Origin: Desulfobulbus propionicus DSM 2032 | GTDB lineage: Bacteria > Desulfobacterota > Desulfobulbia > Desulfobulbales > Desulfobulbaceae | Length of the DNA stretch: 32,000 bases | Assembly: GCF_000186885.1 (NCBI RefSeq) | Contig: NC_014972.1 | Coordinates: 1,290,001 to 1,322,000, forward strand | Direction of reading: 5' to 3' | Shown here: piece by piece, positions 12,438-28,499 of the stretch | Layout of the letters: every line of letters begins with the position of its first letter | Position numbering within the stretch: the stretch's first letter is position 1 | Notes under the pieces: generated by a model | Seen by the model: only the letters and a program-made list of their open reading frames with translations | What the model was told of the DNA's origin: nothing | The model's database searches: none | Program-made: the position numbers and the translations under genes

Positions 12438-14585
12438 CTATTTGACCAAGCCCTTGGTCAGTTCCTGGCTCAAGTTGATTACGGTGTCCATGTCGCCCAT
12501 TTCCTTGGCGGTTTGCATCAGCTGGCTCATGGCCAGAAGGGTGTCCGGATGTTTTTCGCCCAGCACCCGGCGGCGGGTTGCCAGCACCTGTTCCTGAAAG
12601 GGCCGAGCCCCCTCCAGATCGCCCTGATCATGGAGCATGGCGGCGAGATTGTTCAACGACAAGAGGGTCTCCGGGTGGTCCTGGCCCAAAAGACGGGCAC
12701 GAATCTCCAGGACCTTTTCCTCCAGGGTCCGTGCTCCGCTCAGGTTCCCTTGGTTCAGCAAGGTGCTGGCCAGGTTGTTCATGGCGGTCAGGGTATCCGC
12801 GTGCTCCTCGCCAAGAAGGCGTCGGCGCGTGTCCAGAACCTTTTCCTGCAGGGCCTGCGCACCCTTCAGATCGCCCTGCAGGTGCAGAGTGGTGGCGAGA
12901 TTGTTCATGGAAGTGAGGGTCTCCGGGTGCTCCTCGCCGAGGATGCGGCGGCACATCGCCAATTCCTGTTCCTGCAGGGTCCGGGCGCTTTCCAGATCGC
13001 CCTGACTGCTGAGGGTGAGGGCAAGGTTGTTCATGGCCGTGAGTGTCTCCGGGTGCTCCTCCCCCAGAACGCGCCGGCGGGTTGCCAAGACCTTTTCCTG
13101 CAGGGCGCGGGCCGCTTGCAACTCGCCGTTCCTCCATAACGCTTCGCCCACATCCTCTTCCGCGGCCAGAACGGCCGGAGCATCTTCCCCAAGGACCGGC
13201 CGCATGCGGTGCAGACCATGTTGCAGGGCATGCAGGGCCAATCCGTAGTCCCCGGCCCGCAGACAGATCCTGCCCGCGTCCACCAGCACATCCGCCACCT
13301 GCATCGGGTCGAGATCCTCGGCGCCCATCGCCCTGTCGATGGCCGCGCTCAGCAGCTTGGACACCATTTCCCGCTGGCGGGGATAGGCAGCCTGCGCCAC
13401 CTCGAGAATGGCCCGAGCCACCGGCTCGAACAGGTCGGGCGGCGGTTTGCGTTCCATCAGGCTGTAGGCGATGCGCAAGGCGGTGTCCAGATCGCCCGCC
13501 GCTATCCTGTCCTTGGCCTCATCGCCCAACCGCTCGATTTCCCGCTCGATCCGGACCAGGGCCAGGGATTCCCAGGGCGCCTGCAGTTCGGTGAGATACT
13601 CGGCAAAGGCGGCGTAGCTGCTGCGCAAGGACAGACGGGAATCGGTTTCTTCCAGCATGACCGCGATCGGTTCGCCAAAGGCGTAGTCCGGGATGTGCTG
13701 GAGCATGACCGTGTCGAAATATTCCTTGAGCCGGGTTGCCTTGCGCGCGAAGACTTCGTCGAACAACTGCTCGAACAGCGGCTGATAGCCGAGAAGATCG
13801 GCGGGCAGCCCCTTGGCCTCGCCGCCGCCCATTCGCCATGCCTCCATCAGGGCGGGACGCGCCATTTCGATCCGCGAGGGCAGGGGAAAGACAGTCAGCG
13901 GCCGTCCGTCCGGCGAGGATTTGCGGTAGGCGAGGGCCTTGCGGGTCAGCTCGTCGATACCGGTCAGGCTCTGCTGGTTGGGGGTGAACACCACCACCAG
14001 CTTGTCGGGCAGGAGCATGGTGCAGATGCCGCTGGTATCCGAGATACCGGTGCGCGAATCGACCAGCACGTAATCGTAGTGTTGACGCAGGTAATCGGCC
14101 AAGCCGGCGAACAGGCCGATGGTTTCCCGGAACAGCCGGTCCCACTGGAATTCGCTCACCCGCCGGCCATAGTCCGCATCGAAGCGGCCGGCCTTCATGA
14201 TCCGCAGGCCGGAAACCACGGTGGGCAGCAGGTAGCTGTCGAAATCCAGGTCTTCGAGCATCTGGCGGGCGTGGCCACGGTTGGCGACGAAGTCGCTGGG
14301 GTGAAATTCCCGGCGCTGGCCATCGAACAAGGTGAACAGATCCAGGCAGCCGGGCGCGGTCTCGAACCGGTCCTCGGCCGATGCCTCCAGGTAGGGGCGG
14401 AAATAACGGTGCAGGCCGGGGGCCTCGAAGTCCCAGTCCAGGGCCAGCACCCGTGGCGGTCGCGCGACTTCAGAGGGTGGCGCGCTGCCCAGCAGGCAGC
14501 CGATATTGGCCAGGGCCATGGTCCGGCCGGTGCCGCCCTTGTAGGAGTAGAAGGTGATGATTTGTCCGCTTTGCAAGGAGTTCAT
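12438..14585 (-). CDS. ParA/MinD-like ATPase with a KGGxGR variant P-loop, fused to a C-terminal TPR array
   Basis: N-terminus IITFYSYKGGTGRTMALANIG is a deviant Walker A with Arg in place of the P-loop Lys. Walker B is YDYVLVDSRTGISD. The C-terminus carries six 42-aa kinesin-light-chain-type TPR units (LGEEHPETLTAMNNLALTLSSQGDLESARTLQEQ...). The SD GAGGTG overlaps the TIR stop. Confidence 0.85.
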   Translation of the reverse strand: MNSLQSGQIITFYSYKGGTGRTMALANIGCLLGSAPPSEVARPPRVLALDWDFEAPGLHRYFRPYLEASAEDRFETAPGCLDLFTLFDGQRREFHPSDFVANRGHARQMLEDLDFDSYLLPTVVSGLRIMKAGRFDADYGRRVSEFQWDRLFRETIGLFAGLADYLRQHYDYVLVDSRTGISDTSGICTMLLPDKLVVVFTPNQQSLTGIDELTRKALAYRKSSPDGRPLTVFPLPSRIEMARPALMEAWRMGGGEAKGLPADLLGYQPLFEQLFDEVFARKATRLKEYFDTVMLQHIPDYAFGEPIAVMLEETDSRLSLRSSYAAFAEYLTELQAPWESLALVRIEREIERLGDEAKDRIAAGDLDTALRIAYSLMERKPPPDLFEPVARAILEVAQAAYPRQREMVSKLLSAAIDRAMGAEDLDPMQVADVLVDAGRICLRAGDYGLALHALQHGLHRMRPVLGEDAPAVLAAEEDVGEALWRNGELQAARALQEKVLATRRRVLGEEHPETLTAMNNLALTLSSQGDLESARTLQEQELAMCRRILGEEHPETLTSMNNLATTLHLQGDLKGAQALQEKVLDTRRRLLGEEHADTLTAMNNLASTLLNQGNLSGARTLEEKVLEIRARLLGQDHPETLLSLNNLAAMLHDQGDLEGARPFQEQVLATRRRVLGEKHPDTLLAMSQLMQTAKEMGDMDTVINLSQELTKGLVK
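12441..13196 (-). repeat. Six tandem 126-bp coding repeats (42-aa TPR units) inside the ATPase-TPR gene
   Basis: DNA blocks of the type gttgttcatggc(g/c)gt(c/g)ag(g/t)gt(a/c)tcc(g/c)(c/g)gtgctcctc(g/c)cc recur every 126 bp. In protein they read LGEEHPETLT(A/S)MNNLA.TL..QG(D/N)L..A..L(Q/E)E(K/Q)(V/E)L...RR(V/I/L). Confidence 0.8.
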
Positions 14586-14594
14586 CGGTGCACC

Positions 14595-15224
14595 TCAATG
14601 GCCGGGCATGGCGAATGCCTTGATGGGAGAAATGCCTTCCAGCCAGGGCCTGATCGCCTCCAGGTCGGGAAATTTGAAGGATTTGCAGGGCTCGGCCTGG
14701 ATCAGGCCGGCGTTGGTGAGGGCGCGGTACCGGTCGGAAATCTGTTTGGACAGGGCGTACAATTCCTGGTGGCACTCCCGGCGCTTGAAATCGCGTTCAT
14801 GGATCAGATGTTCGAAATTGAGGTAGTGGCGGCAGGTCTTTATTTCCTCGGGCAGGTCGTCGGCCCCCCGGTAGACGACCGGGAAGATCAGGCCCTTGTT
14901 CTGCAGGTCAGCCACGCCCGCGCCGAGGCGCTGCTTTTCCAGTTCGAGCATGGCCTTGTACTCCCTGGCGCAGTACGGATGGTTGATGTCGAAATGCAGG
15001 GGCAGGAAAAACATGACCATGCAGGCGCTGCGACACAGTTCAAAGGCCAGCTCCTCGTTGAACTGGTCGCCGACCTTGAGGCCCTTCTCGTCAAAATAGA
15101 CCGGGGCGTTGGGCAGCCACAGCTGCAGCTGGCGTTTCAATTCGTGGACAAAGGCCTGCACGAATTGCTGCGAGTCGGCCCCGGTGTGCCGGTAGCTGAT
15201 GAAACAGGCGTTGATGGAGTCCAT
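14595..15224 (-). CDS. TIR domain protein (209 aa)
   Basis: ATG 15224 with SD GGAGGA; the track's 372-aa extension overlaps the upstream gene and is Arg/Pro-rich nonsense. It has ACFISYRH (the TIR beta-A FISY motif), ACMVMFFLP, and HPYCAREY in the position of the WCxxE catalytic-Glu motif (E88). Confidence 0.8.
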   Translation of the reverse strand: MDSINACFISYRHTGADSQQFVQAFVHELKRQLQLWLPNAPVYFDEKGLKVGDQFNEELAFELCRSACMVMFFLPLHFDINHPYCAREYKAMLELEKQRLGAGVADLQNKGLIFPVVYRGADDLPEEIKTCRHYLNFEHLIHERDFKRRECHQELYALSKQISDRYRALTNAGLIQAEPCKSFKFPDLEAIRPWLEGISPIKAFAMPGH

Positions 15225-15262: not shown

Positions 15263-18200
15263 TCACGCCGGGGGGGCCGCCGGGTCGCTCGCCATCCCCT
15301 CGGCCAGTCGCTGGAGGGAGGAGCGGATGACCGCGTGGGGTTCTTCTTGCGGCAGCAGGGCAATGAGGAAGCGCAACTGGTTGGCGGTCGAATCCTGTTC
15401 GCGGCCGCTGCCCAGCCGCGTGAACAGGCCGTGATACAGGCCGATCAGGCGCTGGAGCTCGCCGTCCGCGGTCAGGGCCTGGTGCGTGCGGCCATCCAGG
15501 CAGGCCCACAGGCCATTGACCCGTTCCGCTTCCACCTCGGCCAGGGCGTGAAAGAATTGGCGGTTCTCGGCAAAGCGGCTGCGGCCGTTGTCGGCGGCGG
15601 CCGCGAGCAGGCCGGGCAGTTGCGGCAAGAGCTGATCGAAGCGTTCTCGCCGGCCCCGGACGGCGAGAACAAAAGCCGCGTCCAGGGCATTGAGCAGCGG
15701 GTAGTAATCCCAACTGCCGGTGCGCCGGTAGCTCAGCTCGGCCGCCTGCCAGTATTCGCTTTCCAGGTTGCTCAGCCAGGTGTCGGCTTCCGTGATGTTG
15801 CCCTGGGCCACGCCGGCCTGGGTCAGCCGCTTCCAGTACGAGCCGAGCAGCGACCGCCGCTCCACCGTTTCGCCGAGGGCCAGGAGCTGTTGCAGCCGCC
15901 GCCGGCCGGCCTTCATCAGGGCGGTGCCCCGGGCACGCAGCTCGGCGGTCTGCTTGTCGTCCTTGCCCGTGCCTTCCAGGAGGGTGGCCCCGTGGCGGAT
16001 CTCCAGGTTGGCCAGCTGTTCCACCGCGTGCAGGCTGAAGGCCGCATCCTCGAAGCCGAGGGCGGCGCGGTAGTGTTCGATGGCCCGTTCCCGGTCGCCC
16101 AGCTCGGCCCAGGCCGCGGCCAGCTGTTCCCGTACCCCGGCGTGGTGGACATCGGCGCCGCGCGCCGCCTTTTCGATCTGCTTAAGCTGTTTCGTGTAGA
16201 AGTTCGTGCGTTCGGCCGGGGTGACGTCCTTGAGACGGGCGCCGAGCATCTCCAGATCGGCGATCAGATGGCTGGGGTGGACGTATTGGGCGGGTTTTTG
16301 GTCGTCGTCGTTGTCCGCCACCGGGAAGCGGTAACGTTCGTCGCCGTAGGCCTGGAACGCGCCCCAGGTATTGGTCTGCGGGTGGTCGCGATGGGTGGCG
16401 GCGCGGGCCTGGAGCAGGGCCTGGCCAAATCGGCTCCCCTTGAACATGGCCTCGTAGAAGGTGCGGGCAAAGGTGGCCGCGGCCAGGTCGTCCACGGCCC
16501 AACCGGCGGCGATCACCGCCTTGCAGCCCATCTGGATGAACTCGGTGGCCAGGTTGGCGGCCAGCTCGCCCCAAGGTTGCTCGGCATCGCCCTTCATGCT
16601 CCCCAGATGACAGCAGTTGATGAACACGAATTCCGGCACCCGTCGCAGCTTGCTCACCTGGGCGGAGGTGAGAAAGGTGTCCGGGCCGAGCACCATGCCG
16701 GTGCAGCCGGTTTTCTTGTCCCGGACCACGCCGTGCCCGGCCAGGTGAATGAATCGGTAATGGCCGTTGAACAGGCCGTCGAACACATCCTGGGCCGGGG
16801 GTTTGTCCAGCCTCCTGACCCGGTATTCGGCGCGGGTGAAAAATTCGGCCACGGTGCGGCCTTCAGACTGGGCGCCGGGCAGATCCAGCATGCCGGATTC
16901 GGTATCGCCGACGATGAAGGCCTGCTTGTCCTGCACCACCGGCACCCGACCGCGTCCATGGGGTGTGGCCAATTGGCGCACCAGCTCGATCCGCGCGGTC
17001 AGCGGCGCCTCGCCGGCCTGGTCGGTGTCGCGCATCAACTCCCAGGGGTAGGCGGCGGCCTTGGCGTCCACCGACAGCATCAGGGTGCGCAGATCGGCCA
17101 CCGCCTCCTTCATGCCGTTGGGCACCAGCAGCTCGAACAGGGCGCGCGACAGGCCGGGTTGGTCCAGGGTCCGGCCGGTGGCGGTGCGGATCAGGCCGTC
17201 CACCGCCTGGCGCTGGTCGGGCTCGATGCTGACCTCGTTGCGCGCCCGGTCGGTGACCACGGTAAAGCGCAGCCGGCCCTTGTCGGCGACGATATGCACC
17301 CGGTACATGCCCTGCTGGCCGCCGCTGGCCTCGCAGCGGCCGCGATAGCCGCCCTGGCCGTCGCGCAGGCGGCCGTCGAACCGGACCACCTCGGCAAAGC
17401 GGCTCTCGCCGACCAGCTCGCTCAGGGCCTGAACCGTGGCTATGGCCCTGCCTTCGACCTCCTCGAACAGGGCCAGACTGCCGATTCGGGTCTTCATCCC
17501 GGATTGCTGCAACAGCCGGTTGGCCCGGCGCAGGGCTTCGACCAGGCAGCGCGCTCCGGATTCGAGGGGCAGGCCGGCAAAGCCGGTGCCCACCAGCAGG
17601 GAAGAAACCGCCAGCCGCTTGGGTTGCGACGGATCGGCTTCGCATTGTTGTTCCATGATCCGGGCATACTCGAGCAGTCCCTGGGTCAGGGCCTGGGTGA
17701 GGGTGCCGGGCAGCAGCTCGCCAATGGGACCCAGGCCGACGACGATGGCTCCGGCCGGTTTGGCGCCCGCCTCGGTCTGGCGGAAGACCATGGCGTCGCC
17801 GGGCTGGCACGGGTAGCGGCCGATGGCCCGGGCTCGTTCCATGCGGCCTTCGAGATGGTCGCTGAGGAACTTGGCGCTGCCGCGCAGCGGATCGCCGGCA
17901 TAGGCGCCGATCAGCACCGGGGCCTCGGCGCTGGCCAGACTGCCGTGGATGACCTCGATCACCACCGGGGCCTCGCCCTTGTGCCGGCTGCGGCGTCCCG
18001 GCCGGGCCCCGCCGGTGGCGGCGGCCAGCACCTCGTCGGCGCTGGGGTACAGGCCGTTGCCCGTAAGGCCACGCGCCTGGTAGACCACGGCGGTCTCGCC
18101 GCGCGCACCGACCCCGCTGCGGGCCAGCAGACGGGTGGTGCCGTGGTCGAGCAGTTCCCGGTAGGCGGTGAAGGCGTCCTCATGGGCGGCCAGATCGCCA

Positions 18201-20632
18201 TGAACGGCGTCCGCGTACCACACCGGCACTCCGGCAGGAAGACCGGTCTTCCACGGCACCCGGCCATCGCCCTCGCCGGTCCAGCCGATCTCCATCCGGC
18301 CACGTTCGCAGCGCACGGCGATCGGTGTCGGTGCCTGGCCGGCCACGTACAGGCAACACTCCGGATCGAGCCGGGTCTTGCTCAGCTCGGCGACCACGGC
18401 GCGTGCCGCGGCCAGTGCTCCGTCCTGCGGCGGTATCCACGACCGCTCCTTTTTTTCGTCCTGGTCCTGGTCGTAGAATGTCTTCCAGGTCTGCGGGCTG
18501 AAATAGTCAAGCCCGTCAATGGCCGCGCCGTTCTCGCCCGGCCAGGGCAGCATCTCCAGCACGCCGGGGAAATCGCGGACAATGGCGAGAAACTCGCGCA
18601 TGTTGTGCTTCCAATCCACCCACCGTTCGATGGTCTGGACAAAATCGTCCCGCCCGAGCAGCACTGCGGCAATGGAATGCGATCCGGCGTTGGGCGTGCC
18701 CAGTTGCAGCAGGCGGCTGCCGGGCAGGGCCTTGAAGGCCGACCAACGGCTGGCGAGCGCGAGCCGTGCCACCAGGCCGCCCATGGAGTGGGCGACGATG
18801 CGCACCGGTTTGCCGCGTTTGTGGGCCTCGCGCATGGCGGTATCCAGTTCGTCGCCGAAGCGGACGGCCGCCGTGCTGATCGACCGGCGCCAGTCGTAGG
18901 CAAAGGGCCGGACCTCGTGGGTTTCGGCCAGGAAGCGGGCCAGTTTTTCGTAGCAGCGGTCCAGCCAGCCGTCCGGGGTGACGTCCGGATGGTCGATGCG
19001 CAAGGTGTCCATGCCGCCGGCGCAAAGGCTGATCGGATCGAACCAGATGCGGTTGCGGCCGACCTGGAGATGGCTGCCCATGATACCGGGCACGAGCAGG
19101 ACAATCGGCGCCTTGTCGCGGCGCTTGATCTCGACGCCGCCGCGGCTGATGACGGCCTGCGACGGGCCGTCGAGCCGTTCAAACTCGCTGTCCTTCCCTT
19201 GAAGGGCGTCGAGCAGGGCATCGGCGCTCTCGTCGCGGCGGAAATAGCTGAGGTGATGGACCTCGGAGCCGGTGAACCGTTTTTGTTTGATCCCCTGGGT
19301 GCGGAAGGCGCCGCCGCTCATCGACGGCGTGTTGACCACCAGGTCGGTCTGGCCGCCGTAAAACACCTCGGACAGGCAGTCGCCCAGCCAGGGCAGCAGA
19401 CCGTCGCCCTGGAAATCGCCGGCCAGCACATGCAGGGGCGAATCGACGCGCACATCGGCGTCATTGAGCAGACCCACCAGCGGCGAGTCGGGCATCATCG
19501 CCTCCAGGCCGGGGAGGATGCGGGCATCGGTGCGCTCCTTGACCACGGCGAGCAGAAAATTCTGCAACAGGTCAAAGCCCTTGGCCACCGGTTCGAGCAG
19601 GGGCAGGGCCTTGGCGCCGACTGCAAAGCCCTTGCCCATGAGGTTGGTCATGACGCTCGCCCAGCGGTCGAGCTTGCCCGAGGCGAGCGTGGTGCCGCGC
19701 GCCGGGCAGGCGACGCGCACGAACCGTTCCACCCGGATGGCGCGCCGCCGCAGCTCCTGATTGAGCTCGCGCAGCCGGTCGGCGTCGGCCTCGAAGCCCT
19801 CGCGGCCCGTCTTTTCCCCTTGTTCGCGGAAACGGTGGATCTCGCTTTCGGTGAAGGGGTCGCGGTCGGTCCGGTTGGCCCGGGTCAGGAGTTCGCCCAC
19901 CATGCCGCCGCGCGAATGGCTGACCAGGTGCAATCGTGCGTTTTCGGGCAGGGCTTTGATCAGGTCGAGCGCATTGGCGATCGGGCTGTCGGTGAGGGTG
20001 CGGTGTTCGAAGGCAAAGATGCGGCTTCCATAGAGCGTGACCAGTTGCCGCAGGCGGCCGCCATGTTCCCACAGGCCGCCGAAGCTGCCTTCGGTGGACG
20101 AGGCGGTGCCGTGGAGAAAGAGCAGGACCGGTTCGCCCGAGGCGGGCATCTTGTCCACCCGGTGCAGGTCGAAGCGGTCGGTGGCGCAGCGATACAGGCC
20201 GTTGCGATGATCCAGCCGGGCATCCTGAAAGCTGCCGGCGGCGATCAGGGCGGTCATGCCCGCCGGGCCCCGGCGGAAGATGCGCAAGCCCTTGAGCACC
20301 CAGGCGCCGATACCCTCGCGCGACAAGCCTTCCGGCAGACGCGGGCCGGTGAGGCGCAGGGCCTGGCCGACGCTGATCTCGCCCGCCGTGCCCTCGCCCC
20401 GCCCCAACGGTGTGCCAAGATAGCGCTCCATATCGCCGGCCGCCACCAGCAGACGCATGCCGTTGGCCAGCTCCAATTCGACGACATCGTCGGCTTCCAG
20501 GGGCCGTGGCGTGGCGATGGCCTCGGCACCCCGCGCCGCCCCGTCAAGGCGGTAGGTTTCGGCCTCCCATCCGGCGATGTGTTCCTCTTGAACCGCTGAA
20601 CCTTCAATCTTGAGAGTGATGGTGTCGCTCAT
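15263..20632 (-). CDS. 1789-aa multidomain protein: N-terminal region, alpha/beta-hydrolase 1, LCAT/PGAP1-like alpha/beta-hydrolase 2, unknown middle domain, CHAT caspase-fold protease, C-terminal helical (TPR-like) region
   Basis: SD AGGAGG before ATG 20632. Hydrolase 1 (aa ~165-320): VLLFLHGTASSTEGSF...LHLVSHSRGGMVGELL, with S240 in an SHSRG elbow. Hydrolase 2 (aa ~505-700): PIVLLVPGIMGSHL...FAYDWRRS...VRIVAHSMGGLVARLA, with S616. CHAT (aa ~1160-1435): AYPWELM...YRFIHLAGHGV...EFVFINCCHLGS, a His1300 / Cys1340-1341 dyad. The tail (aa ~1450-1789) is helical. Confidence 0.85.
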   Translation of the reverse strand: MSDTITLKIEGSAVQEEHIAGWEAETYRLDGAARGAEAIATPRPLEADDVVELELANGMRLLVAAGDMERYLGTPLGRGEGTAGEISVGQALRLTGPRLPEGLSREGIGAWVLKGLRIFRRGPAGMTALIAAGSFQDARLDHRNGLYRCATDRFDLHRVDKMPASGEPVLLFLHGTASSTEGSFGGLWEHGGRLRQLVTLYGSRIFAFEHRTLTDSPIANALDLIKALPENARLHLVSHSRGGMVGELLTRANRTDRDPFTESEIHRFREQGEKTGREGFEADADRLRELNQELRRRAIRVERFVRVACPARGTTLASGKLDRWASVMTNLMGKGFAVGAKALPLLEPVAKGFDLLQNFLLAVVKERTDARILPGLEAMMPDSPLVGLLNDADVRVDSPLHVLAGDFQGDGLLPWLGDCLSEVFYGGQTDLVVNTPSMSGGAFRTQGIKQKRFTGSEVHHLSYFRRDESADALLDALQGKDSEFERLDGPSQAVISRGGVEIKRRDKAPIVLLVPGIMGSHLQVGRNRIWFDPISLCAGGMDTLRIDHPDVTPDGWLDRCYEKLARFLAETHEVRPFAYDWRRSISTAAVRFGDELDTAMREAHKRGKPVRIVAHSMGGLVARLALASRWSAFKALPGSRLLQLGTPNAGSHSIAAVLLGRDDFVQTIERWVDWKHNMREFLAIVRDFPGVLEMLPWPGENGAAIDGLDYFSPQTWKTFYDQDQDEKKERSWIPPQDGALAAARAVVAELSKTRLDPECCLYVAGQAPTPIAVRCERGRMEIGWTGEGDGRVPWKTGLPAGVPVWYADAVHGDLAAHEDAFTAYRELLDHGTTRLLARSGVGARGETAVVYQARGLTGNGLYPSADEVLAAATGGARPGRRSRHKGEAPVVIEVIHGSLASAEAPVLIGAYAGDPLRGSAKFLSDHLEGRMERARAIGRYPCQPGDAMVFRQTEAGAKPAGAIVVGLGPIGELLPGTLTQALTQGLLEYARIMEQQCEADPSQPKRLAVSSLLVGTGFAGLPLESGARCLVEALRRANRLLQQSGMKTRIGSLALFEEVEGRAIATVQALSELVGESRFAEVVRFDGRLRDGQGGYRGRCEASGGQQGMYRVHIVADKGRLRFTVVTDRARNEVSIEPDQRQAVDGLIRTATGRTLDQPGLSRALFELLVPNGMKEAVADLRTLMLSVDAKAAAYPWELMRDTDQAGEAPLTARIELVRQLATPHGRGRVPVVQDKQAFIVGDTESGMLDLPGAQSEGRTVAEFFTRAEYRVRRLDKPPAQDVFDGLFNGHYRFIHLAGHGVVRDKKTGCTGMVLGPDTFLTSAQVSKLRRVPEFVFINCCHLGSMKGDAEQPWGELAANLATEFIQMGCKAVIAAGWAVDDLAAATFARTFYEAMFKGSRFGQALLQARAATHRDHPQTNTWGAFQAYGDERYRFPVADNDDDQKPAQYVHPSHLIADLEMLGARLKDVTPAERTNFYTKQLKQIEKAARGADVHHAGVREQLAAAWAELGDRERAIEHYRAALGFEDAAFSLHAVEQLANLEIRHGATLLEGTGKDDKQTAELRARGTALMKAGRRRLQQLLALGETVERRSLLGSYWKRLTQAGVAQGNITEADTWLSNLESEYWQAAELSYRRTGSWDYYPLLNALDAAFVLAVRGRRERFDQLLPQLPGLLAAAADNGRSRFAENRQFFHALAEVEAERVNGLWACLDGRTHQALTADGELQRLIGLYHGLFTRLGSGREQDSTANQLRFLIALLPQEEPHAVIRSSLQRLAEGMASDPAAPPA

Positions 20633-20745: not shown

Positions 20746-22092
20746 TCAATACCGCACCGTCGCCATCACCATCCCGGCGGTCCAGTTCTCGTCGTCGCCA
20801 AAACGCTGCTTGGCGCCGTCGTCGGGCAGGGCGTAGGCGCCGACCAGGGAGAGGGTCAGGTGCGGGGTGGCCGTCCAATCGACAATCAGGTTCCACTCGT
20901 CCACATAGTCGTCGCTAGTCACGCCCATGGCCTGGGCATCGTGGAGGCTGAAGGCGTAGTGGATCAGGTTGACCGTCAGCGGTTCGGCTGGCTGCAGCTT
21001 GAGGCGCAGCATGTGCGAGTCGAGGTTCTCGTTGAACAGGTCGTACTCGCCGGTGATCTCGCCCTGGAACCAGGAACCCCAGTCCACGGCGCTGTAAAAG
21101 AGGACGTCGTAGTCTTCGTCGAAACTGGCGTAGCGGTAGGTCAGCTCCGGCTTCCAGGGCAGTTGCGCGAACTGGTAGCTGACCGAGGCGTACCAGCCGC
21201 TGCCGTCGTCCATGCCGTCCTCCCGGTCTTCGCGGACAAATTCGGCAGCGAATGTGAGCGGCTGCAGGGCGGCCGGCCCCTGGCCCAACTCGAACGGTTT
21301 GACGCTGCCGCGCAGATCAAAGAGGTGCATGCCGTCGCGGGAGGGGACGTCGGATTCGAGGGCGGCCATCGTGCCGCCGAGGGTGGCGGTCGGGGTGAAG
21401 GCGTATTCCACCGTGGCGCCGCCGGCACTGGTGTTGTAGGGAAAGAGGCTGTTGTTTTCGAAATAGAACAGATCGCCGGACCAGGGGCCGATTTTTATCC
21501 GGGCGATGGCCGCGTAATCGGCGCTTCGGCGGCCGCCGAGGTAGTAGGCGGCACGGCGGAAGCCTGCCCCGCCCTCGCTGCCGAACAGGAAGGCGGTGCC
21601 GGTGGTGTAGATCTGACGGCCAAAGGAGAGATCGAGGAAGTCGGTGCCCAGGGAAGAAAAGAGCGTGCCCGACCGCCAGCCGAGATAGGCCTTGTCGATC
21701 CCCAGCCAGCTGACATCGCCCAACTCGGCGTTGGTGAAGCTGGCATCGATGCCGCCGAAGGTGTTGGCCTGGACCACGTCGATCCGGCCGTAGATGGACT
21801 GGCTGTTGGCCAGGACAACCTGCCCTTCCAGGCCGGGACGGATCAACGATTCCGACCAGGAATCGATATCGGTGCCGAATTTCGCCCTGTCCGCGCCGTA
21901 CCAGGCGTTGTCCTGGCTGAAGTAGGCGTAGTCCACGCCCAGAGTGGCCTGGAGGTAGCTGCCGCGCGTGTCTTGGTAAAAGCGGAGCGGATTGGTGTCG
22001 CCCTCGCCGGCAAGCGGCGCTGCCGGCCAGGCGAGCGCGGCGAGCAAGGCGGCGAGGGCGGTGGTTCGTGGGGGAATGTGGTCCTGGTCCAT
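20746..22092 (-). CDS. Outer-membrane beta-barrel protein (porin / alginate-export-like)
   Basis: ATG 22092 gives the signal-peptide-like MDQDHIPPRTTALAALLAALAWPAAPLAGEG. Alternating aromatic/Gly-rich strands occur throughout, and the C-terminus ...GMVMATVRY ends in an aromatic residue as in OMP beta-signals. Confidence 0.6.
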   Translation of the reverse strand: MDQDHIPPRTTALAALLAALAWPAAPLAGEGDTNPLRFYQDTRGSYLQATLGVDYAYFSQDNAWYGADRAKFGTDIDSWSESLIRPGLEGQVVLANSQSIYGRIDVVQANTFGGIDASFTNAELGDVSWLGIDKAYLGWRSGTLFSSLGTDFLDLSFGRQIYTTGTAFLFGSEGGAGFRRAAYYLGGRRSADYAAIARIKIGPWSGDLFYFENNSLFPYNTSAGGATVEYAFTPTATLGGTMAALESDVPSRDGMHLFDLRGSVKPFELGQGPAALQPLTFAAEFVREDREDGMDDGSGWYASVSYQFAQLPWKPELTYRYASFDEDYDVLFYSAVDWGSWFQGEITGEYDLFNENLDSHMLRLKLQPAEPLTVNLIHYAFSLHDAQAMGVTSDDYVDEWNLIVDWTATPHLTLSLVGAYALPDDGAKQRFGDDENWTAGMVMATVRY

Positions 22093-22219
22093 GGAAGCAC
22101 TGAAGATCGGTTGAAGGTGGATGGGAAGGCGGCGCGGGGCCGATCGGTCGAGAGCCGGCTCCGCGCCGCGTAACAACGGGTTGCCGAAACCGGCCTTCGA
22201 GGCCGACCCCGGCGGGCAA

Positions 22220-23011
22220 TTATTGGAAGATCTTGAACCGCCGCGCTGTTTTCGTTCCGAAGATCTGCGGCGTTTGCGGCAGGCGGGTCGAGGGCAGATA
22301 GGCGCGGATGGCGTTGAACCATTTTTCGTAGCTGGTCGGCTTGGCCTCGCGCAGGGCCTTGAGGGCGTAGAAGGTGAAGGCGCCGTTGGGCCGGCCGTTG
22401 AAGCGGGTGTCGTAGCTGTATTCGGTGTCCAGGCAACCCGCCAACAGCAGGTCGCCGCCAGCCCGGGTGAAGCCGCCGCGCGGGATGGCGGCGCGCAGCT
22501 GCGCCGGCGGCAGGTCTTCCTTGGCCATCCATGCCTCGGGCGGCATGAAGCGGATGCGGGGCACGCCGGGATCGATATCCTCCTCGGAACCCCGGGTCAC
22601 CGAGCCCGAATGACAGCTGTCGGAGATGAGCACGATGCGCACCCCTGCCTTGCGGCGGCTGAACAGGGCGTGGATGTCGTCGTCAAGCAGGGCGCCCTTG
22701 GTGGCCAGATCATGGGGGCAGAGGGCCTCGTCGCGACCGTCGGGTTCGTCGCCGCTCCTGTCCGGTACCCAGGTGCCGTGGCCGGAATAGGTGAAGATCA
22801 GGCTGTCGCCCTTGGCCGCGCCGTCGATCAGACCACCGATGGCCGCGACCATGGCCGCCTTGGTGGCGGCGGCGTCGAGCAGTTTGTCGACCGTGAAGCC
22901 GCGCGCGGTCAATTCGGCGGCCCAGTCGTTGGCGTCGTTGACGCAGCCGGAGAGATCGTTTTGGGTGCCGGGATAGTCGTTGATGCCGATGCACAGTGCT
23001 TTTTTGCTCAT
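22220..23011 (-). CDS. Caspase-family (peptidase C14, metacaspase/orthocaspase-like) protein, 263 aa
   Basis: ALCIGINDYPG...LSGCVNDA...LIFTYSGHGT (catalytic His) ...VLISDSCHSGS (catalytic Cys). SD AGGAGG precedes ATG 23011. No signal peptide is seen. Confidence 0.85.
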   Translation of the reverse strand: MSKKALCIGINDYPGTQNDLSGCVNDANDWAAELTARGFTVDKLLDAAATKAAMVAAIGGLIDGAAKGDSLIFTYSGHGTWVPDRSGDEPDGRDEALCPHDLATKGALLDDDIHALFSRRKAGVRIVLISDSCHSGSVTRGSEEDIDPGVPRIRFMPPEAWMAKEDLPPAQLRAAIPRGGFTRAGGDLLLAGCLDTEYSYDTRFNGRPNGAFTFYALKALREAKPTSYEKWFNAIRAYLPSTRLPQTPQIFGTKTARRFKIFQ

Positions 23012-23218: not shown

Positions 23219-25681
23219 TCAGGGACCTTCCCGATGCTGCAGATGGGCCAACACCAGGTTGATTTCGCCGTAGGTGTAGTCGTCGCCCAGGGCCTCCTTC
23301 ACGGCCTTGAGCGAGCCGGCCTGCACGGTGGCGAGCCGCTCTTCGAGCTCGCGCAGCCGTTCCTTGGGCAACAGGCCGTCGATGGCGAGCTCGCCCGCCT
23401 TGATGAAGTAGGCCAGGTGGCCCTCGACGGTCTGGGTGGTCAGGCCGCGCTGGGCGGCGATCTCGGCGATGGAGAGGCCATCCCGCAGCATTTCCAGGCT
23501 GGTCTTCTTGGTGTCTTCCCGTTTGCCCGCCTTTTTCCGCTCGCCGGTGGGACCGATGCTGTGGGGAAGGGGCAGGGTGACGCTGTCGATGCGGTGCTCG
23601 CTGCGATACGCGTTCACCAGGGCCACGATCTCGGCACCGTATTTCTCGGCCAGCTTGGCGCCGACGCCCTTGATCGTTCGCAGTGCCTTGAGGCTGTCGG
23701 GCAGGTGGACCGCGATCTGGATGAGGGTCTTCTGGTGCAGCACCTGAAACGGGGCAATATTGGCCGCCTTGGCCCGCTCGGCGCGCCAGTGCCGCAGTTG
23801 GCGGAACAGCTCCGGGTGGCCGACATCGGCCTCGGTGTAGATCGAGGTGGATTTGTCCGGACGCTGGTCCGCCTCCAGGAGCGCGGCCGACAGGGCGCGG
23901 AGGTAACGGCCCGGGGAAAAATCCTCGCCGCAGGCGACGATGGCCGCCAGCTTGGCCGCGCACTCCTGCCGGAGCTGTTTGATCACCTCATTGATCCGCT
24001 TGCGCACCTCCTTGTTGTCCGATTCCACCTCCAGTCCGTCGACGCAGGGTTTGAGCACGGTATCGAACTGCTCGCGGAAATAGCCCGCCGCCTTGGCCAG
24101 CCGTTCGCGGATGACCGGGTCCCTGGCGGGTTCCTTGTCCGCCTGAAACAGGGTGCGCAGCTGGCGGCGGAAGTTGTCGCCCACGGTGCAGATCGCTTCC
24201 TGGGTCGTGCGCTGCACGTCGAACAGATCGGCCCCGGCCGTTATCGTCACGATGCTCGCGTTGCCGCGCACCAGCCCCACCAGCCGGCCGAGCAGCCGGG
24301 CCAGGGTTTGGAAATCGTAGCACTGGTCGAGCAGCTGCTGCTGATAGCGGATCTTGGCCGTTTGCAGGGTGGCCTCGGTGGGGGCCTGGCTTTCGATGGC
24401 GGCGACGAAATCGAGCACCGCCGGATCGGTGCGGATGGCGTTGGCGACAATCGGCGAACTCAGCACCAGCCCCTCGAAGGTGCGGCAGCGGCTCAGGGCC
24501 ACATAGACCTGGCCGTGGGCAAAGGCGTCCTGGGCGTCGATCACCGCCCGGTCAAAGGTCAGGCCCTGGCTCTTGTGGATGGTGATGGCCCAGGCCGGCT
24601 TGAGCGGCACCTGGTTGAAGCTGCCCACCACCTTGGGCGAGATCTCGGCGGTGTCGGCATCGACCCGGTATTCAATGTTCTCCCAGGTGACCGGCTTGAC
24701 CTCGATGGTCTCGGGCTCGCCCGGACAGTCGACCCGGATGGTGTCGCGGCCGAGATGGGCGATGGTGCCGATCTTGCCGTTGAAATAGCGTTTTTCTGGT
24801 GAGGTGTCGTTGCGCACGAACATCACCTGCGCCCCCACCTTCAGCTCCAGACTGGCGGCGGTGGGGAAGGCGTATTCGGGAAAGCTGCCCTCGACCCCGG
24901 CCTCAAAGCAACGGCTGGAACCGGGCAGGGCGTCGAGCCTCTTGTGGTTGATGGCGTCGGCGCTGTTGTTGTGGGTGCACAGGGTGATGACCCCCTCGGC
25001 CTCCTGCGGGGAGAAATCGGGCCGAAAGCGGCTGTTGAGCGTCGCCAGGCTGGCCGCGTCGAGGCGGTTGTCGCGCACCCGATTGAGCAGGTCGATGAAG
25101 CGGCCATCCGACTGGCGGTAGATGTGTTTAAGTTCGATCGGGATCAGTTCAAGCCGCGAGAGCGCCCGGCTGCTGAAGAAGTAGGGCGAGGCGTACTGGC
25201 CGGCGAGCAGCTGCCATTCGTCCTCCTTGACCACCGGCGGCAACTGATGCAGGTCGCCGATCATCAGCAGCTGCACGCCGCCAAAGGGCAGCTCGGAGCG
25301 GCGGTAGCGGCGCAATACCGTATCGACCCCGTCGAGCAGATCGGCCCGCACCATGCTGATTTCGTCGATCACCAGCAGATCGAGGCTGTTGATGATGTTG
25401 CGTTTTTCCCGGCTGACCCGGTGCCGGCCGCCGTGCAGCTCGGTGCCGGGGAGAAAGGGGCCAAAGGGTAGCTGGAAAAAGGAGTGGAGGGTAACGCCGC
25501 CGGCATTGATCGCCGCCACCCCGGTGGGCGCGGTCACCACCAGCCGCTTGTGGGTCTGCTGTTTGATCTGGTGGAGGAAGGTGGTCTTGCCGGTGCCCGC
25601 CTTGCCGGTGAGAAACAGGCAGCAGTTGGTGTGCTCGACAAAGGCGTGCGCCAGGTGCAGTTCGGGGTTGGGAGGGCTCAT
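23219..25681 (-). CDS. Pif1/RecD-like superfamily-1 DNA helicase with C-terminal HRDC and HTH regions
   Basis: Walker A is LFLTGKAGTGKTTFL, followed by VVTAPTGVAAINAGGVTLHSFF and the DEISMV Walker B. An HRDC-like segment (LFRQLRHWRAERAKAANIAPFQVLHQKTLIQIA...IKGVGAKLAEKYG) is present. The C-terminus is LSIAEIAAQRGLTTQTVEGHL. Confidence 0.85.
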   Translation of the reverse strand: MSPPNPELHLAHAFVEHTNCCLFLTGKAGTGKTTFLHQIKQQTHKRLVVTAPTGVAAINAGGVTLHSFFQLPFGPFLPGTELHGGRHRVSREKRNIINSLDLLVIDEISMVRADLLDGVDTVLRRYRRSELPFGGVQLLMIGDLHQLPPVVKEDEWQLLAGQYASPYFFSSRALSRLELIPIELKHIYRQSDGRFIDLLNRVRDNRLDAASLATLNSRFRPDFSPQEAEGVITLCTHNNSADAINHKRLDALPGSSRCFEAGVEGSFPEYAFPTAASLELKVGAQVMFVRNDTSPEKRYFNGKIGTIAHLGRDTIRVDCPGEPETIEVKPVTWENIEYRVDADTAEISPKVVGSFNQVPLKPAWAITIHKSQGLTFDRAVIDAQDAFAHGQVYVALSRCRTFEGLVLSSPIVANAIRTDPAVLDFVAAIESQAPTEATLQTAKIRYQQQLLDQCYDFQTLARLLGRLVGLVRGNASIVTITAGADLFDVQRTTQEAICTVGDNFRRQLRTLFQADKEPARDPVIRERLAKAAGYFREQFDTVLKPCVDGLEVESDNKEVRKRINEVIKQLRQECAAKLAAIVACGEDFSPGRYLRALSAALLEADQRPDKSTSIYTEADVGHPELFRQLRHWRAERAKAANIAPFQVLHQKTLIQIAVHLPDSLKALRTIKGVGAKLAEKYGAEIVALVNAYRSEHRIDSVTLPLPHSIGPTGERKKAGKREDTKKTSLEMLRDGLSIAEIAAQRGLTTQTVEGHLAYFIKAGELAIDGLLPKERLRELEERLATVQAGSLKAVKEALGDDYTYGEINLVLAHLQHREGP

Positions 25682-26312: not shown

Positions 26313-28220
26313 TTATTTCAGGCTGTTCGGGTCATGACAGGAGATCCCGCAGGAGTTCGTGTACGGGATGGGCATGGCCTTGTCCGGGTCCACGCCCTTC
26401 ACATACTTGTTGTCCTTGCGGGGGACGATGAGCAGGTGGGAAGTGATGTCGTTTTCCCAATAGTTCTTGCCATCGGCCGTCACCAGTCCTTTGCCGAAGC
26501 CTGCTCCGGTTTGGGCCGTCTTGAACTGATGGCAGTTGGTGCAGGTGATCTTGGTTTCCGGTCCGTGCGCCATGCCCACGGCGTTCTCGGTATGCTTGGC
26601 CATATCCTTCTGCGCGGTATGGCAGCTCTGACAGTAGGTGCTTCCCGGCGTGACCGCATCCTGGCGCATCTGATGCTTGAACGCTGACCCGCCATGAGGA
26701 TCGTGACAGGTGGTGCAGCTTAGGATCTGCTCAGCGTTGCGGTATTTTGTCGAACGGATAAAGTCGAGATACTGCTGATGATGCGACTTGGAATGGGATT
26801 CCCACACATCCTTGGGCGAGGCATCCTCACGGGTGGTGAAGTTGACCAGATACTCGTTCCGACTGATGCCCGGAGCCATCATCTTGTTGTCCTTGTTGAC
26901 CGGCTGGTCATTGTTGAGGAAACCCTGGGGCCGAGAATGGCATTGGCCGCAGATGACCGAGGCCCTTTCTGAAGCCAGTTTACCGGGACTGACAATGGTG
27001 GCAGCTTTTTTCGCGGCCGGTGCCTTGACGTGGGCCGATCCGGCACCGTGACAGGACTCGCAGCCGATGTTCAGTTCGTTGGGCACGCCGTCGCCGTCGA
27101 TGTCTGCCTCGCCGTTCGGATCATTGACCGCGCCGGCGATGTACTCCCCAGAATCCAGTTTGGTGAGACTGTATCCGGTATAGTGGCAGGAGGCGCATTC
27201 CTTTTCAAAGGACTTGGCGATAGGAGGGTCGGTGAGTTTCTTGGTTTCCTCGTTGAAGAACCAGTCCGCATGGTAGTCCCTGAACTGCTTCCGCGTCCGG
27301 TTACCGTACTCATCCTTGCCGTGCTCGTTGTACTGCAGGAACGGATAGAGGCTCTTGCCAACGTGCAGGAGATAACGCTGTTTATAGAGACCTCCGCCGT
27401 AGGTCAGTTCCACCGGATACTCCCGAGGGGGATCGGATGGATCCTTCAGATTCTGCATCTTGATCTTGACGTGTCCCTTGTCGTCGGCGGAGAAGGTGGC
27501 GCTCAGGCTGGCGGTAGTGGGATCTTTCGGCATTTCTCGGGCGACCTTGTACTTGTCGAATCCGCGTTCCTTGTCAAAATCAAAGAAATAGAAGGTTGCT
27601 CCAGCCTTGAGAATGTTGAGACCGTTGTCGATTTCAACAAACCGCGAAGAATCCTGGAGTTTGCTGTCCTTGCCGGCAACTCGGATGCCTAGTTTATGGA
27701 GGGTCATCTTTTCGGTGGCATAATCCTTGTGGCAGTTGAGGCAACTGGTCGTGCCCACGAAGGTGGCACCTGCGGGGGTATTGCCCGAAAGAAGAATTTC
27801 GACCGGCTTCCCCTTCAACGCTTTAGGGGAGATGGCGACATCAGCCTTGTTGCCACCGGGCAGATAGGTCGCATCCGCCGGGACGACGTAAAGGAAGTAT
27901 TTTGCCTCGGCGACGTCGGCAATCTTGAATTTGCCCTGCTTGTCGGAGACTCCTTTTTTGTAGGTATCTTTGTTGGCCGCTAGATTGTCCTCCAGCGGTT
28001 CATCATTAGCGGCATTTTTTTTGACCTCCAGCGGGGTTTTCGCCATTGCCGCCACGTCTGTGGCTGGAATCAGATAGACGGTAGCCTTGGGCACGACGTG
28101 TTTCGATGCATCCTTGACAACGCCGCTTATGGTGGTGCCGGCCATCAGTGGCCTGCCCGCCAGGAGCAACACTCCCAAGCTCATGACAAAATACGACACG
28201 ATTCTGTACCAATGTTTCAT
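26313..28220 (-). CDS. Multiheme c-type cytochrome (seven CXXCH plus one CX3CH) with signal peptide and N-terminal CarboxypepD_reg-like domain
   Basis: ATG 28220 with SD GGAGG gives MKHWYRIVSYFVMSLGVLLLAGRPLMAG. Heme motifs are CLNCH, CASCH, CESCH, CGQCH, CTTCH, CQSCH, CTNCH and CGISCH. The track's longer 728-aa version starts in the leader and was rejected. Confidence 0.85.
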   Translation of the reverse strand: MKHWYRIVSYFVMSLGVLLLAGRPLMAGTTISGVVKDASKHVVPKATVYLIPATDVAAMAKTPLEVKKNAANDEPLEDNLAANKDTYKKGVSDKQGKFKIADVAEAKYFLYVVPADATYLPGGNKADVAISPKALKGKPVEILLSGNTPAGATFVGTTSCLNCHKDYATEKMTLHKLGIRVAGKDSKLQDSSRFVEIDNGLNILKAGATFYFFDFDKERGFDKYKVAREMPKDPTTASLSATFSADDKGHVKIKMQNLKDPSDPPREYPVELTYGGGLYKQRYLLHVGKSLYPFLQYNEHGKDEYGNRTRKQFRDYHADWFFNEETKKLTDPPIAKSFEKECASCHYTGYSLTKLDSGEYIAGAVNDPNGEADIDGDGVPNELNIGCESCHGAGSAHVKAPAAKKAATIVSPGKLASERASVICGQCHSRPQGFLNNDQPVNKDNKMMAPGISRNEYLVNFTTREDASPKDVWESHSKSHHQQYLDFIRSTKYRNAEQILSCTTCHDPHGGSAFKHQMRQDAVTPGSTYCQSCHTAQKDMAKHTENAVGMAHGPETKITCTNCHQFKTAQTGAGFGKGLVTADGKNYWENDITSHLLIVPRKDNKYVKGVDPDKAMPIPYTNSCGISCHDPNSLK

Positions 28221-28471
28221 CTGGGCACCTCCTGCAAGAAGGGATGGGGCGAACCACAAACAAATCGAACCGTCAGCGCGGCCTTTGTTCATGGGGGGGT
28301 GCAGCGTGGAGGAAAGGTCAGTGGGAAAAAATGGATGAGGGGATGGACTCTCCCGCCGTGTGTCACGGTCGGTGCATAAGGGGGAATTGCAGAGCGCGTT
28401 CACGGACCGGGAGAGAGTATTCACGTGCAGCCCCCCTTTGTTTACCTTTTGGATGCTCAAACAATAAGGCA

Positions 28472-28499
28472 AAATTACAAATGATCGTATCGAAGTCAA
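28472..28499 (-). promoter_or_regulatory. Possible sigma-70 promoter for the cytochrome gene
   Basis: The minus strand reads TTGACT-16 nt-TAATTT in the only AT-rich patch of the 520-bp divergent intergenic region. This implies a leader of roughly 250-270 nt. Confidence 0.3.

Follow-up and report, generated by a model that had tools for sequence, protein, structure and literature searches.

A 32,000-nt stretch of the Desulfobulbus propionicus DSM 2032 genome (contig NC_014972.1, positions 1,290,001 to 1,322,000; hereafter the window, whose own coordinates are used below) contains on its minus strand a large gene (15263..20632) encoding a 1,789-aa multidomain protein. From the N-terminus, this protein comprises a beta-rich domain, two alpha/beta-hydrolase domains, a macro-fold domain, a CHAT (caspase-fold) protease domain and a TPR-S-like alpha-solenoid, all coordinates of which refer to the minus strand. 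We propose, giving the proposal roughly an even chance, that the protein acts in the cytoplasm as a lipase effector whose protease gate is part of the same chain, and that it serves a biological-conflict system, most likely one of anti-phage abortive infection. Neither a signal peptide nor a hydrophobic stretch of transmembrane strength was found in the 1,789-aa protein, which is therefore taken to be cytoplasmic. The same domain set is shared by >120 clusters of full-length homologues (49-80% identity), which places the domain architecture far beyond chance.

The original prediction, made from the DNA letters and their translations, had recognized two lipase-like hydrolases, a CHAT protease and a helical tail, and had read the protein as either a multi-pronged suicide effector or a proenzyme processed by its own CHAT domain. 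This reading agrees with the genomic context and, by analogy, with published precedent, while the cleavage and the activities that it invokes remain predicted. It is incomplete, having overlooked that the tail is of the TPR-S type, as well as the macro-fold domain, the partner caspase and the link to TIR-domain proteins. Its description of the combination as unusual was mistaken, because the architecture defines a large conserved family and the pairing of caspases with alpha/beta-hydrolases has already been published.

The minus-strand open reading frame (ORF) at 15263-20632 is real, with Pfam matches and homologues for its product and a Shine-Dalgarno-like AGGAGG located 7-12 nt 5' of the ATG. 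An overlapping plus-strand ORF (15335..20599, 1,754 aa) is a high-GC shadow, since Pfam matches and homologues were obtained solely for the minus-strand translation. All domains claimed in the original prediction were recovered by profile search, with DUF7379, PGAP1, LCAT and CHAT each scoring above the Pfam gathering score, and the Ser, His and Cys residues it had singled out fall on conserved positions in an alignment of 70 sequences. This alignment, on which the conservation counts given below are based, includes the window protein and 69 relatives from different species, down to 34% identity; the catalytic residues are also conserved in 114 full-length sequences at 49-80% identity. Structural models were generated with AlphaFold2 for two halves of the protein using a 40-sequence alignment, yielding a mean predicted local distance difference test score (pLDDT) of 77 for aa 1-850 and of 80 for aa 851-1789. 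When the PDB was searched by sequence, using either the protein or a whole-family profile, only marginal matches to LCAT, TPR and TTHA0132 entries were obtained.

The N-terminal beta-rich domain (aa 1-165; 20138..20632), delimited from the AlphaFold2 secondary structure, has no Pfam match at E<=10 and was not found in neighbouring proteins. It is followed by alpha/beta-hydrolase 1 (aa ~166-500; 19133..20137), which is defined by a Pfam match, a conserved triad and a lipase-like fold. The match is to DUF7379, from aa 170 onward (E 3.4e-36; 125.4 bits against a cut-off of 33), a family of which no mention was found in the literature searched. The oxyanion motif of this domain reads HGTASS and its nucleophile, S240, lies in SHSRGG, within the LVSHSRGG elbow (aa 236-243) quoted in the original prediction; D430 and H460 are proposed from sequence conservation as its triad partners (S240 and D430 each in 69/70 sequences, H460 in 70/70). 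Hydrolase 1 also has a long helical insertion containing a loop at aa 311-331 (ARGTTLASGRLDRW). This loop (ARGTTLASGRLDRWASVM; 19640-19702) is near-invariant across the family down to 34% identity and is modelled by AlphaFold2 with pLDDT <50; as a conserved flexible element, it may serve as a lid, for autoinhibition or for cleavage.

Alpha/beta-hydrolase 2 (aa ~505-835; 18128..19120) is LCAT/PGAP1-like according to both Pfam and Foldseek, with PGAP1 (30.4 bits; cut-off 24.3) and LCAT (29.3 bits; cut-off 21) matching around aa 571-659. The motifs VLLVPGIMGS (aa 511-520), FAYDWR (aa 577-582) and VAHSMGG (aa 613-619) lie at the residues originally assigned to them, providing the oxyanion motif PGIMGS and the nucleophile S616 in AHSMGG; D789 in GDGRV and H811 complete the triad, the Asp and His having been assigned from motif order and conservation. 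D789 is present in 69/70 sequences and H811 in 70/70, and S616 is retained in 62/70 and replaced by G or A in the other eight, so that the catalytic center of hydrolase 2 is sometimes lost. A Foldseek search of the PDB with the N-terminal half placed lysosomal phospholipase A2 (LPLA2; 4x92, E 2.6e-9) and LCAT at the top, followed by bacterial and monoglyceride lipases. Hydrolase 2 has the fold of the LCAT, LPLA2 and PGAP1 lipases as well as their AHSMGG nucleophile elbow and their FxYDWR and GDGxV motifs, the latter containing the Asp, but its identity to them is only 14-19% and it is embedded in a giant cytoplasmic multidomain protein. On this similarity of fold and motif, lipase or phospholipase activity is a candidate function for both hydrolase domains.

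The resemblance of these folds to secreted bacterial lipases, together with a weak Pfam match to Tle3 (E 0.16), could also point to an exported inter-bacterial toxin bearing lipase and protease warheads, in the style of the Tle lipases of type VI secretion systems or of polymorphic toxins. We consider this very improbable. The Tle3 match attains 11.9 bits, far under the cut-off of 27, and no PAAR, Rhs or VgrG domain and no recurring immunity-like gene was found. With no signal peptide or transmembrane segment in the protein and no secretion genes nearby, the notion of a secreted toxin was rejected.

The second hydrolase is connected to the remainder of the protein by a flexible linker (aa 836-888; 17969..18127), identified from low pLDDT and from the alignment. 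It contains a conserved arginine (R844), the motif LYPSxxEVLAAAxGG and a basic patch (RPGRRSRHK), and is a candidate protease cleavage region. Beyond it, aa ~889-1080 (17393..17968) form the macro-fold domain, assigned through Foldseek and profile matches. The top Foldseek matches are macroH2A1.1, Thermus thermophilus TTHA0132, MacroD1/2, trypanosome macrodomains and the N-terminal domain of leucyl aminopeptidase (E 3e-5 to 1e-3; template modelling score to target 0.6-0.74; probability 1.00 for the top matches). A 17-sequence profile of the region matches the aminopeptidase N-domain 3jru (E 4.8e-5) and TTHA0132 (2dx6; E 6e-3), and the conserved loop of the family, LLVGTGFAGL (LLVGTGxxGL), aligns with LLGTGVGGL of TTHA0132. 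Four glycines of the region (G909, G961, G968 and G1015) are kept in 69-70 of the 70 sequences. The macro fold can thus be regarded as firm on the basis of the predicted model; nucleotide binding is not firm, and a small-molecule sensor is the candidate role for this domain. A small beta subdomain separates the macro fold from the CHAT domain in the AlphaFold2 model.

The CHAT protease domain (aa 1162-1431; 16340..17149) matches Pfam PF12770 almost from end to end (profile positions 4-289 of 289; E 2.8e-30, 106.2 bits against a cut-off of 24), and separase is found among the Foldseek fold matches of the C-terminal half. The dyad motifs HLAGHG (aa 1296-1301) and FINCCHLG (aa 1337-1344) had been correctly identified, but not their position: the His/Cys dyad lies ~450-490 aa from the C-terminus, and the CHAT domain starts 627 aa from it, instead of the ~700 aa originally reported. 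H1300 (codon 16733-16735) and G1301 are invariant (70/70), and C1340 and C1341 (codon of the latter, 16610-16612) are each conserved in 69/70 sequences. HLAGHG and FINCCHLG are collinear with YSGHG and DSCHSG of a stand-alone C14 caspase encoded close to the large gene, each local alignment having a non-significant E-value. C1341 is likely to be the CHAT nucleophile, because in this comparison FINCCHLG aligns to DSCHSG and HLAGHG to YSGHG.

The protein ends in an alpha-solenoid (aa ~1445-1789; 15266..16300) that corresponds to the ~340-aa helical tail described in the original prediction; it spans ~345 aa and is modelled by AlphaFold2 as all-helical over ~aa 1453-1781, with pLDDT >90. The TPR-S profile (PF20308) reaches 21.5-24.4 bits over aa 1515-1650 of the large protein, under its cut-off of 27.6, and exceeds the cut-off in relatives (e.g. 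46.7 and 53.6 bits), with PF20308 precomputed for most homologues. A putative sensor role for the TPR-S tail is suggested, by analogy, by the Pfam name and by its citation in the Thoeris literature.

The architecture is widespread. A scan of species-representative genomes identified at least 592 confirmed relatives (592 of the 600 pattern matches listed, a lower bound), with the architecture kept end to end down to 34% identity. Among the matches listed, the family spans Beta- and Gammaproteobacteria, Desulfobulbia, Acidobacteriota, Nitrospirota and Acidimicrobiia, and the closest relative genome is that of an uncultured Desulfobulbus (76% identity). An exhaustive HMMER search with the macro and CHAT part of the protein yielded 1,387 representatives at 50% identity (E<=1e-30), mostly of ~1,800 aa and with the macro-CHAT module at the same position. 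Shorter macro-CHAT-TPR-S relatives were considered as modular variants and set aside, some of them being truncated gene calls: P0138 starts inside PGIMGS, and P0132 starts 120 nt from a contig end.

One relative, P0249 (2,058 aa), carries a C-terminal TIR_2 domain on the hydrolase-hydrolase-CHAT architecture and is the only C-terminal TIR fusion among the 268 proteins checked. It occurs on two independent contigs (L084, 3163-9339; L085, 3173-9349), both with a 240-aa TIR gene upstream; downstream there is a 136-aa TIR gene in L085 and IS66 transposase genes in L084.

To characterize the genomic neighbourhood of the family, all ORFs within 5 kb of the large gene were clustered for 79 genome loci, 60 of them with full flanks. 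The only widely shared neighbour is a small C14 caspase, encoded within 5 kb in 26/60 full-flank loci and usually adjacent and co-directional. In the first kilobase next to the large gene the caspase density is 12.7 per 100 kb, dropping to <=0.8 beyond 5 kb; of the 30 caspase genes in the 79 loci, 18 lie within 1 kb and 16 of these 18 are co-directional. The link also holds in relatives at 35-40% identity, and the C14 caspase is a likely functional partner of the large protein.

TIR ORFs are the second kind of neighbour that is enriched. Their density within 3 kb of the large gene is 5-9.5 per 100 kb, 5-9 times that at 5-10 kb (1.1 per 100 kb), and 32 of them lie in this 3-kb range, 27 in the same direction as the large gene. 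They are found within 5 kb in 25/79 loci and are absent from that interval in the remaining 54. Loci such as L007, L028 and L050 show the order TIR-X, caspase, large gene, TIR, in which adjacent genes are 34-120 nt apart. The TIR proteins themselves are heterogeneous, including TIR-PASTA, TIR-NB-ARC-TPR, Patatin-TIR, SIR2-TIR, ThsB-like and FxsC-like forms; fusions of the Patatin-TIR and SIR2-TIR types adjoin family members at L028 (7002-9101) and L055 (15403-16761). A ~650-aa protein combining a weak TIR-like N-terminus with TPR-S and MAP3K_TRAF_bd domains is encoded nearby in 12 loci and directly adjacent in nine; loci with this adjacency include L012, L013, L015, L078 and L081. The TPR-S type common to this neighbour and to the tail of the large protein hints at a shared ligand or at homotypic coupling; a pairwise BLAST between the two was uninformative. 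The neighbouring ORFs were also searched for each domain of the large protein (N-terminal, both hydrolases, macro, CHAT, TPR-S), whose sharing would point to homotypic adaptor coupling, and none was found.

A mechanism can be envisaged in which the hydrolases and the CHAT protease would be held in an auto-inhibited state inside the large chain. The macro-fold domain, the TPR-S solenoid or both would read a signal, perhaps a nucleotide of the ADP-ribose type produced by a TIR protein encoded nearby, and this would switch the CHAT protease on, probably via oligomerization. The protease would then cut conserved Arg-containing flexible segments of its own chain, for which R312|G313, R497, R844 and the basic patch near aa 880 are candidates, and would also process the partner caspase, which lacks a sensor. 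At the start of the 311-331 loop, R312 is present in 53/69 sequences and G313 in 69/69; in the linker between the hydrolases, R497 is found in 61/69 and G498 in 42/69. Cleavage would license the two lipase-like domains to act on membrane lipids and the caspase to act on proteins, so that the infected cell is killed or arrested. In its most elaborate version, a three-tier cascade in a single operon would lead from a TIR-made signal through the divergent macro-fold and/or TPR-S domain to CHAT as initiator, and from there to self-cleavage releasing two lipases and to activation of an executioner caspase. We put this version forward tentatively, as an unlikely one.

By analogy, each proposed step has a published precedent in separate proteins. 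In the ternary conflict systems of vWA-MoxR-associated proteins (VMAPs), a caspase-superfamily domain always comes with an adjacent alpha/beta-hydrolase gene, and their joint action has been proposed (Kaur et al., 2020; PMC7159879). In the only experimental study of such hydrolases, a caspase-like protease (LcCaspase) cuts an alpha/beta-hydrolase zymogen (LcHydrolase) at two R|G sites near the lid to generate a death effector, the substrate of which was left open (Evans et al., 2025; PMC12642450). In fold class and gene linkage the present family resembles these modules, in that a caspase-fold protease and a lipase-like alpha/beta-hydrolase are genetically linked and occur in defence settings together with various sensors. 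LcCaspase and LcHydrolase are the products of two genes, whereas here CHAT, two different hydrolases, a macro-fold domain and a TPR-S tail form one 1,789-aa chain, an extra stand-alone caspase is often adjacent and the R|G cleavage motif is not clearly conserved. In type III-B CRISPR systems, ligand-bound SAVED-CHAT cleaves and activates PCaspase, a Peptidase C14 protein (Steens et al.; bioRxiv 10.1101/2023.06.23.546230). The similarities in this case are a sensor N-terminal to CHAT (here the macro-fold domain as a putative one) and a separate Peptidase C14 caspase at the same locus. The large protein differs in having no SAVED domain and no CRISPR context, a macro-fold domain in the sensor position and two added hydrolases, and the PADLOC SAVED_CHAT profile matches it with only 16.4 bits (E 8e-4) over aa 1347-1454, that is, in its CHAT part.

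Thoeris systems offer the remaining parallels. The macro domain of type II senses His-ADP-ribose (His-ADPR), the caspase-like protease of type IV is switched on by N7-cyclic ADP-ribose (N7-cADPR), and for type VIII, sensing of cADPR by the effector ThsI is suspected to reside in a TPR domain that Aravind's group had predicted. Here too, TIR genes adjoin an effector that combines a putative macro-fold and/or TPR-S sensor with a caspase-fold protease, but the TIR link is facultative (25/79 loci), the TIR neighbours are heterogeneous and the macro-like domain is highly divergent. No description of the single-chain form, with two hydrolases, macro fold, TPR-S tail, caspase partner and TIR association, was found in the literature searched.

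In the window, the large gene belongs to a run of six consecutive minus-strand genes extending from a helicase to a KGGVGR ATPase. The first encodes a PIF1/RecD-like superfamily 1B (SF1B) helicase with C-terminal HRDC and HTH_40 domains (23219-25681). This helicase matches the helicases of the PADLOC candidate systems PDC-S68 and PDC-M16A as well as DpdF, and the helicase-caspase arrangement is conserved in L005 and L016. After 207 nt comes the gene for the stand-alone C14 caspase (22220..23011), a 263-aa protein with YSGHG and DSCHSG motifs (Pfam Peptidase_C14, E 7.6e-29). A single promoter-like consensus was located in the vicinity of these genes, immediately 5' of the caspase gene; this is weak evidence, as two sites were found against 1.5 expected. 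The following gene (20746-22176), 43 or 127 nt away depending on the start codon chosen and 113 nt from the large gene, encodes an outer-membrane beta-barrel-like protein with a weak Alginate_exp match. Its product has a signal-peptide-like N-terminus after the methionine at 22092 and ends in ATVRY. The gene occurs between the caspase and the large gene solely in Desulfobulbus-type loci (the window, L005 and L016); elsewhere the caspase abuts the large gene.

On the opposite side, 38 nt past the stop codon of the large gene, starts the gene for a 209-aa TIR-domain protein (14595..15224, minus strand) with Pfam TIR_2 and NCBIfam FxsC_Nterm matches, both below cut-off. It is followed after 9 nt by the gene for a KGGVGR-type AAA ATPase fused to TPR_10/TPR_12 repeats (12438..14585, minus strand), which matches NCBIfam AAA_KGGVGR at 119 bits, above the cut-off, and FxSxx_TPR below it (FxsT-like), and corresponds to the PADLOC candidate PDC-M28B. 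The TIR protein is possibly the generator of the signal, or part of a separate system, and the ATPase is probably its sensor or switch partner. Together, the two genes (12438-15224, minus strand) look like a candidate defence system of their own.

Several observations weigh against the protease-gated effector proposed here. A NCBIfam profile search of the large protein gave no match, and neither PADLOC nor NCBIfam recognizes it as a defence component. The Pfam Macro profile (PF01661) has no match at E<=10, including in any of the 17 members profiled, and in sequence the macro-like region is closest to the N-terminal domain of leucyl aminopeptidase, which does not bind ligands. Neither the first glycine-rich phosphate loop nor the NAAN motif is conserved in distant members. 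R-G dipeptides, apart from that in the nucleophile elbow, are neither conserved in the family nor statistically enriched, and conservation in the linkers is confined to some Arg residues, so that the candidate Arg cleavage sites are leads only. Of the 53 loci whose flanks extend for at least 3 kb in both directions, 22 (~40%) have no caspase, TIR, TIR-like or nSTAND gene inside the 5-kb interval, among them every Janthinobacterium and Zoogloea locus. Any signal from a partner must consequently be dispensable or be encoded at another site. Furthermore, the TIR/KGGVGR-TPR pair of the window may be an independent neighbouring module, because it is absent from the closest genome, L005, though this keeps the helicase, caspase, outer-membrane protein, large and flavin mononucleotide (FMN) reductase genes in the same order; the pair is present in L030 and L017.

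Much of this evidence fits the main rival explanation, a self-contained sensor-effector that would recognize a phage protein by direct binding to its TPR-S solenoid or N-terminal beta domain, after the manner of Avs/STAND or Craspase-type repeats, with the macro-like region as a spacer of the aminopeptidase-N type and the TIR genes as unrelated residents of the same island. The partner-less loci and the coming and going of the TIR/ATPase pair in close relatives, independently of the large gene, speak for direct sensing. The macro-like region is, moreover, nearer in sequence to Peptidase_M17_N (matched by 12/17 members, best E 2e-5, and by the large protein at 17 bits, below the cut-off of 23.4) than to true macro domains, and neighbouring TIR proteins such as Patatin-TIR and SIR2-TIR have effectors of their own. 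Direct sensing is disfavoured by the steep decay of TIR density with distance, the predominantly co-directional arrangement and very short gaps of the TIR genes, the natural TIR fusion in P0249 and the conservation in the family of LLGTGxGG, a phosphate-loop motif of true macro domains that aligns to TTHA0132. On balance we deem direct sensing somewhat unlikely.

The base composition of the window bears on a further alternative. The segment from the helicase to the ATPase (~12-26 kb) has a GC content of 63-71%, versus 51-58% beyond ~26 kb, in a region that contains genes for a multihaem cytochrome c (26313-28499) and a TauE exporter. This fits horizontal acquisition of the ~12-26 kb segment; no integrase or tRNA gene was seen around it. 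The difference, together with flanks that vary between close relatives and with neighbours typical of defence islands (TIR, nSTAND-WD40, SIR2-TIR, Patatin-TIR and PDC-M28-like genes), argues against a role unrelated to phage, in which the protein would regulate programmed cell death, development or the remodelling of membranes in multicellular or filamentous bacteria, upon endogenous stress or ADP-ribosylation signals. Such a role would suit the frequency of the family in aggregate-forming and filamentous lineages (relatives of Desulfobulbaceae, Zoogloea and Sphaerotilus) and the link drawn between such caspase-hydrolase systems and a multicellular habit (Kaur et al., 2020; PMC7159879). The Janthinobacterium gene, for its part, resides in a conserved housekeeping context beside Ppx-GppA and GGDEF genes. 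We judge a developmental function to be decidedly unlikely.

As a protease-gated conflict effector, the large protein would represent a family in which one chain unites a putative sensor with an initiator protease and two lipase warheads, and whose members often have an executioner caspase and TIR proteins encoded close by. Bacterial and eukaryotic innate immunity have protease-gated death effectors and TIR signalling as common central themes, and the cascade, if true, would unite Thoeris-like signalling, a caspase cascade and membrane lipolysis in one bacterial pathway. The family may provide a compact system for addressing how caspase-fold proteases license alpha/beta-hydrolases, whether TIR-made nucleotides are read by macro-fold or TPR-S domains and what the substrate of caspase-linked hydrolases is.

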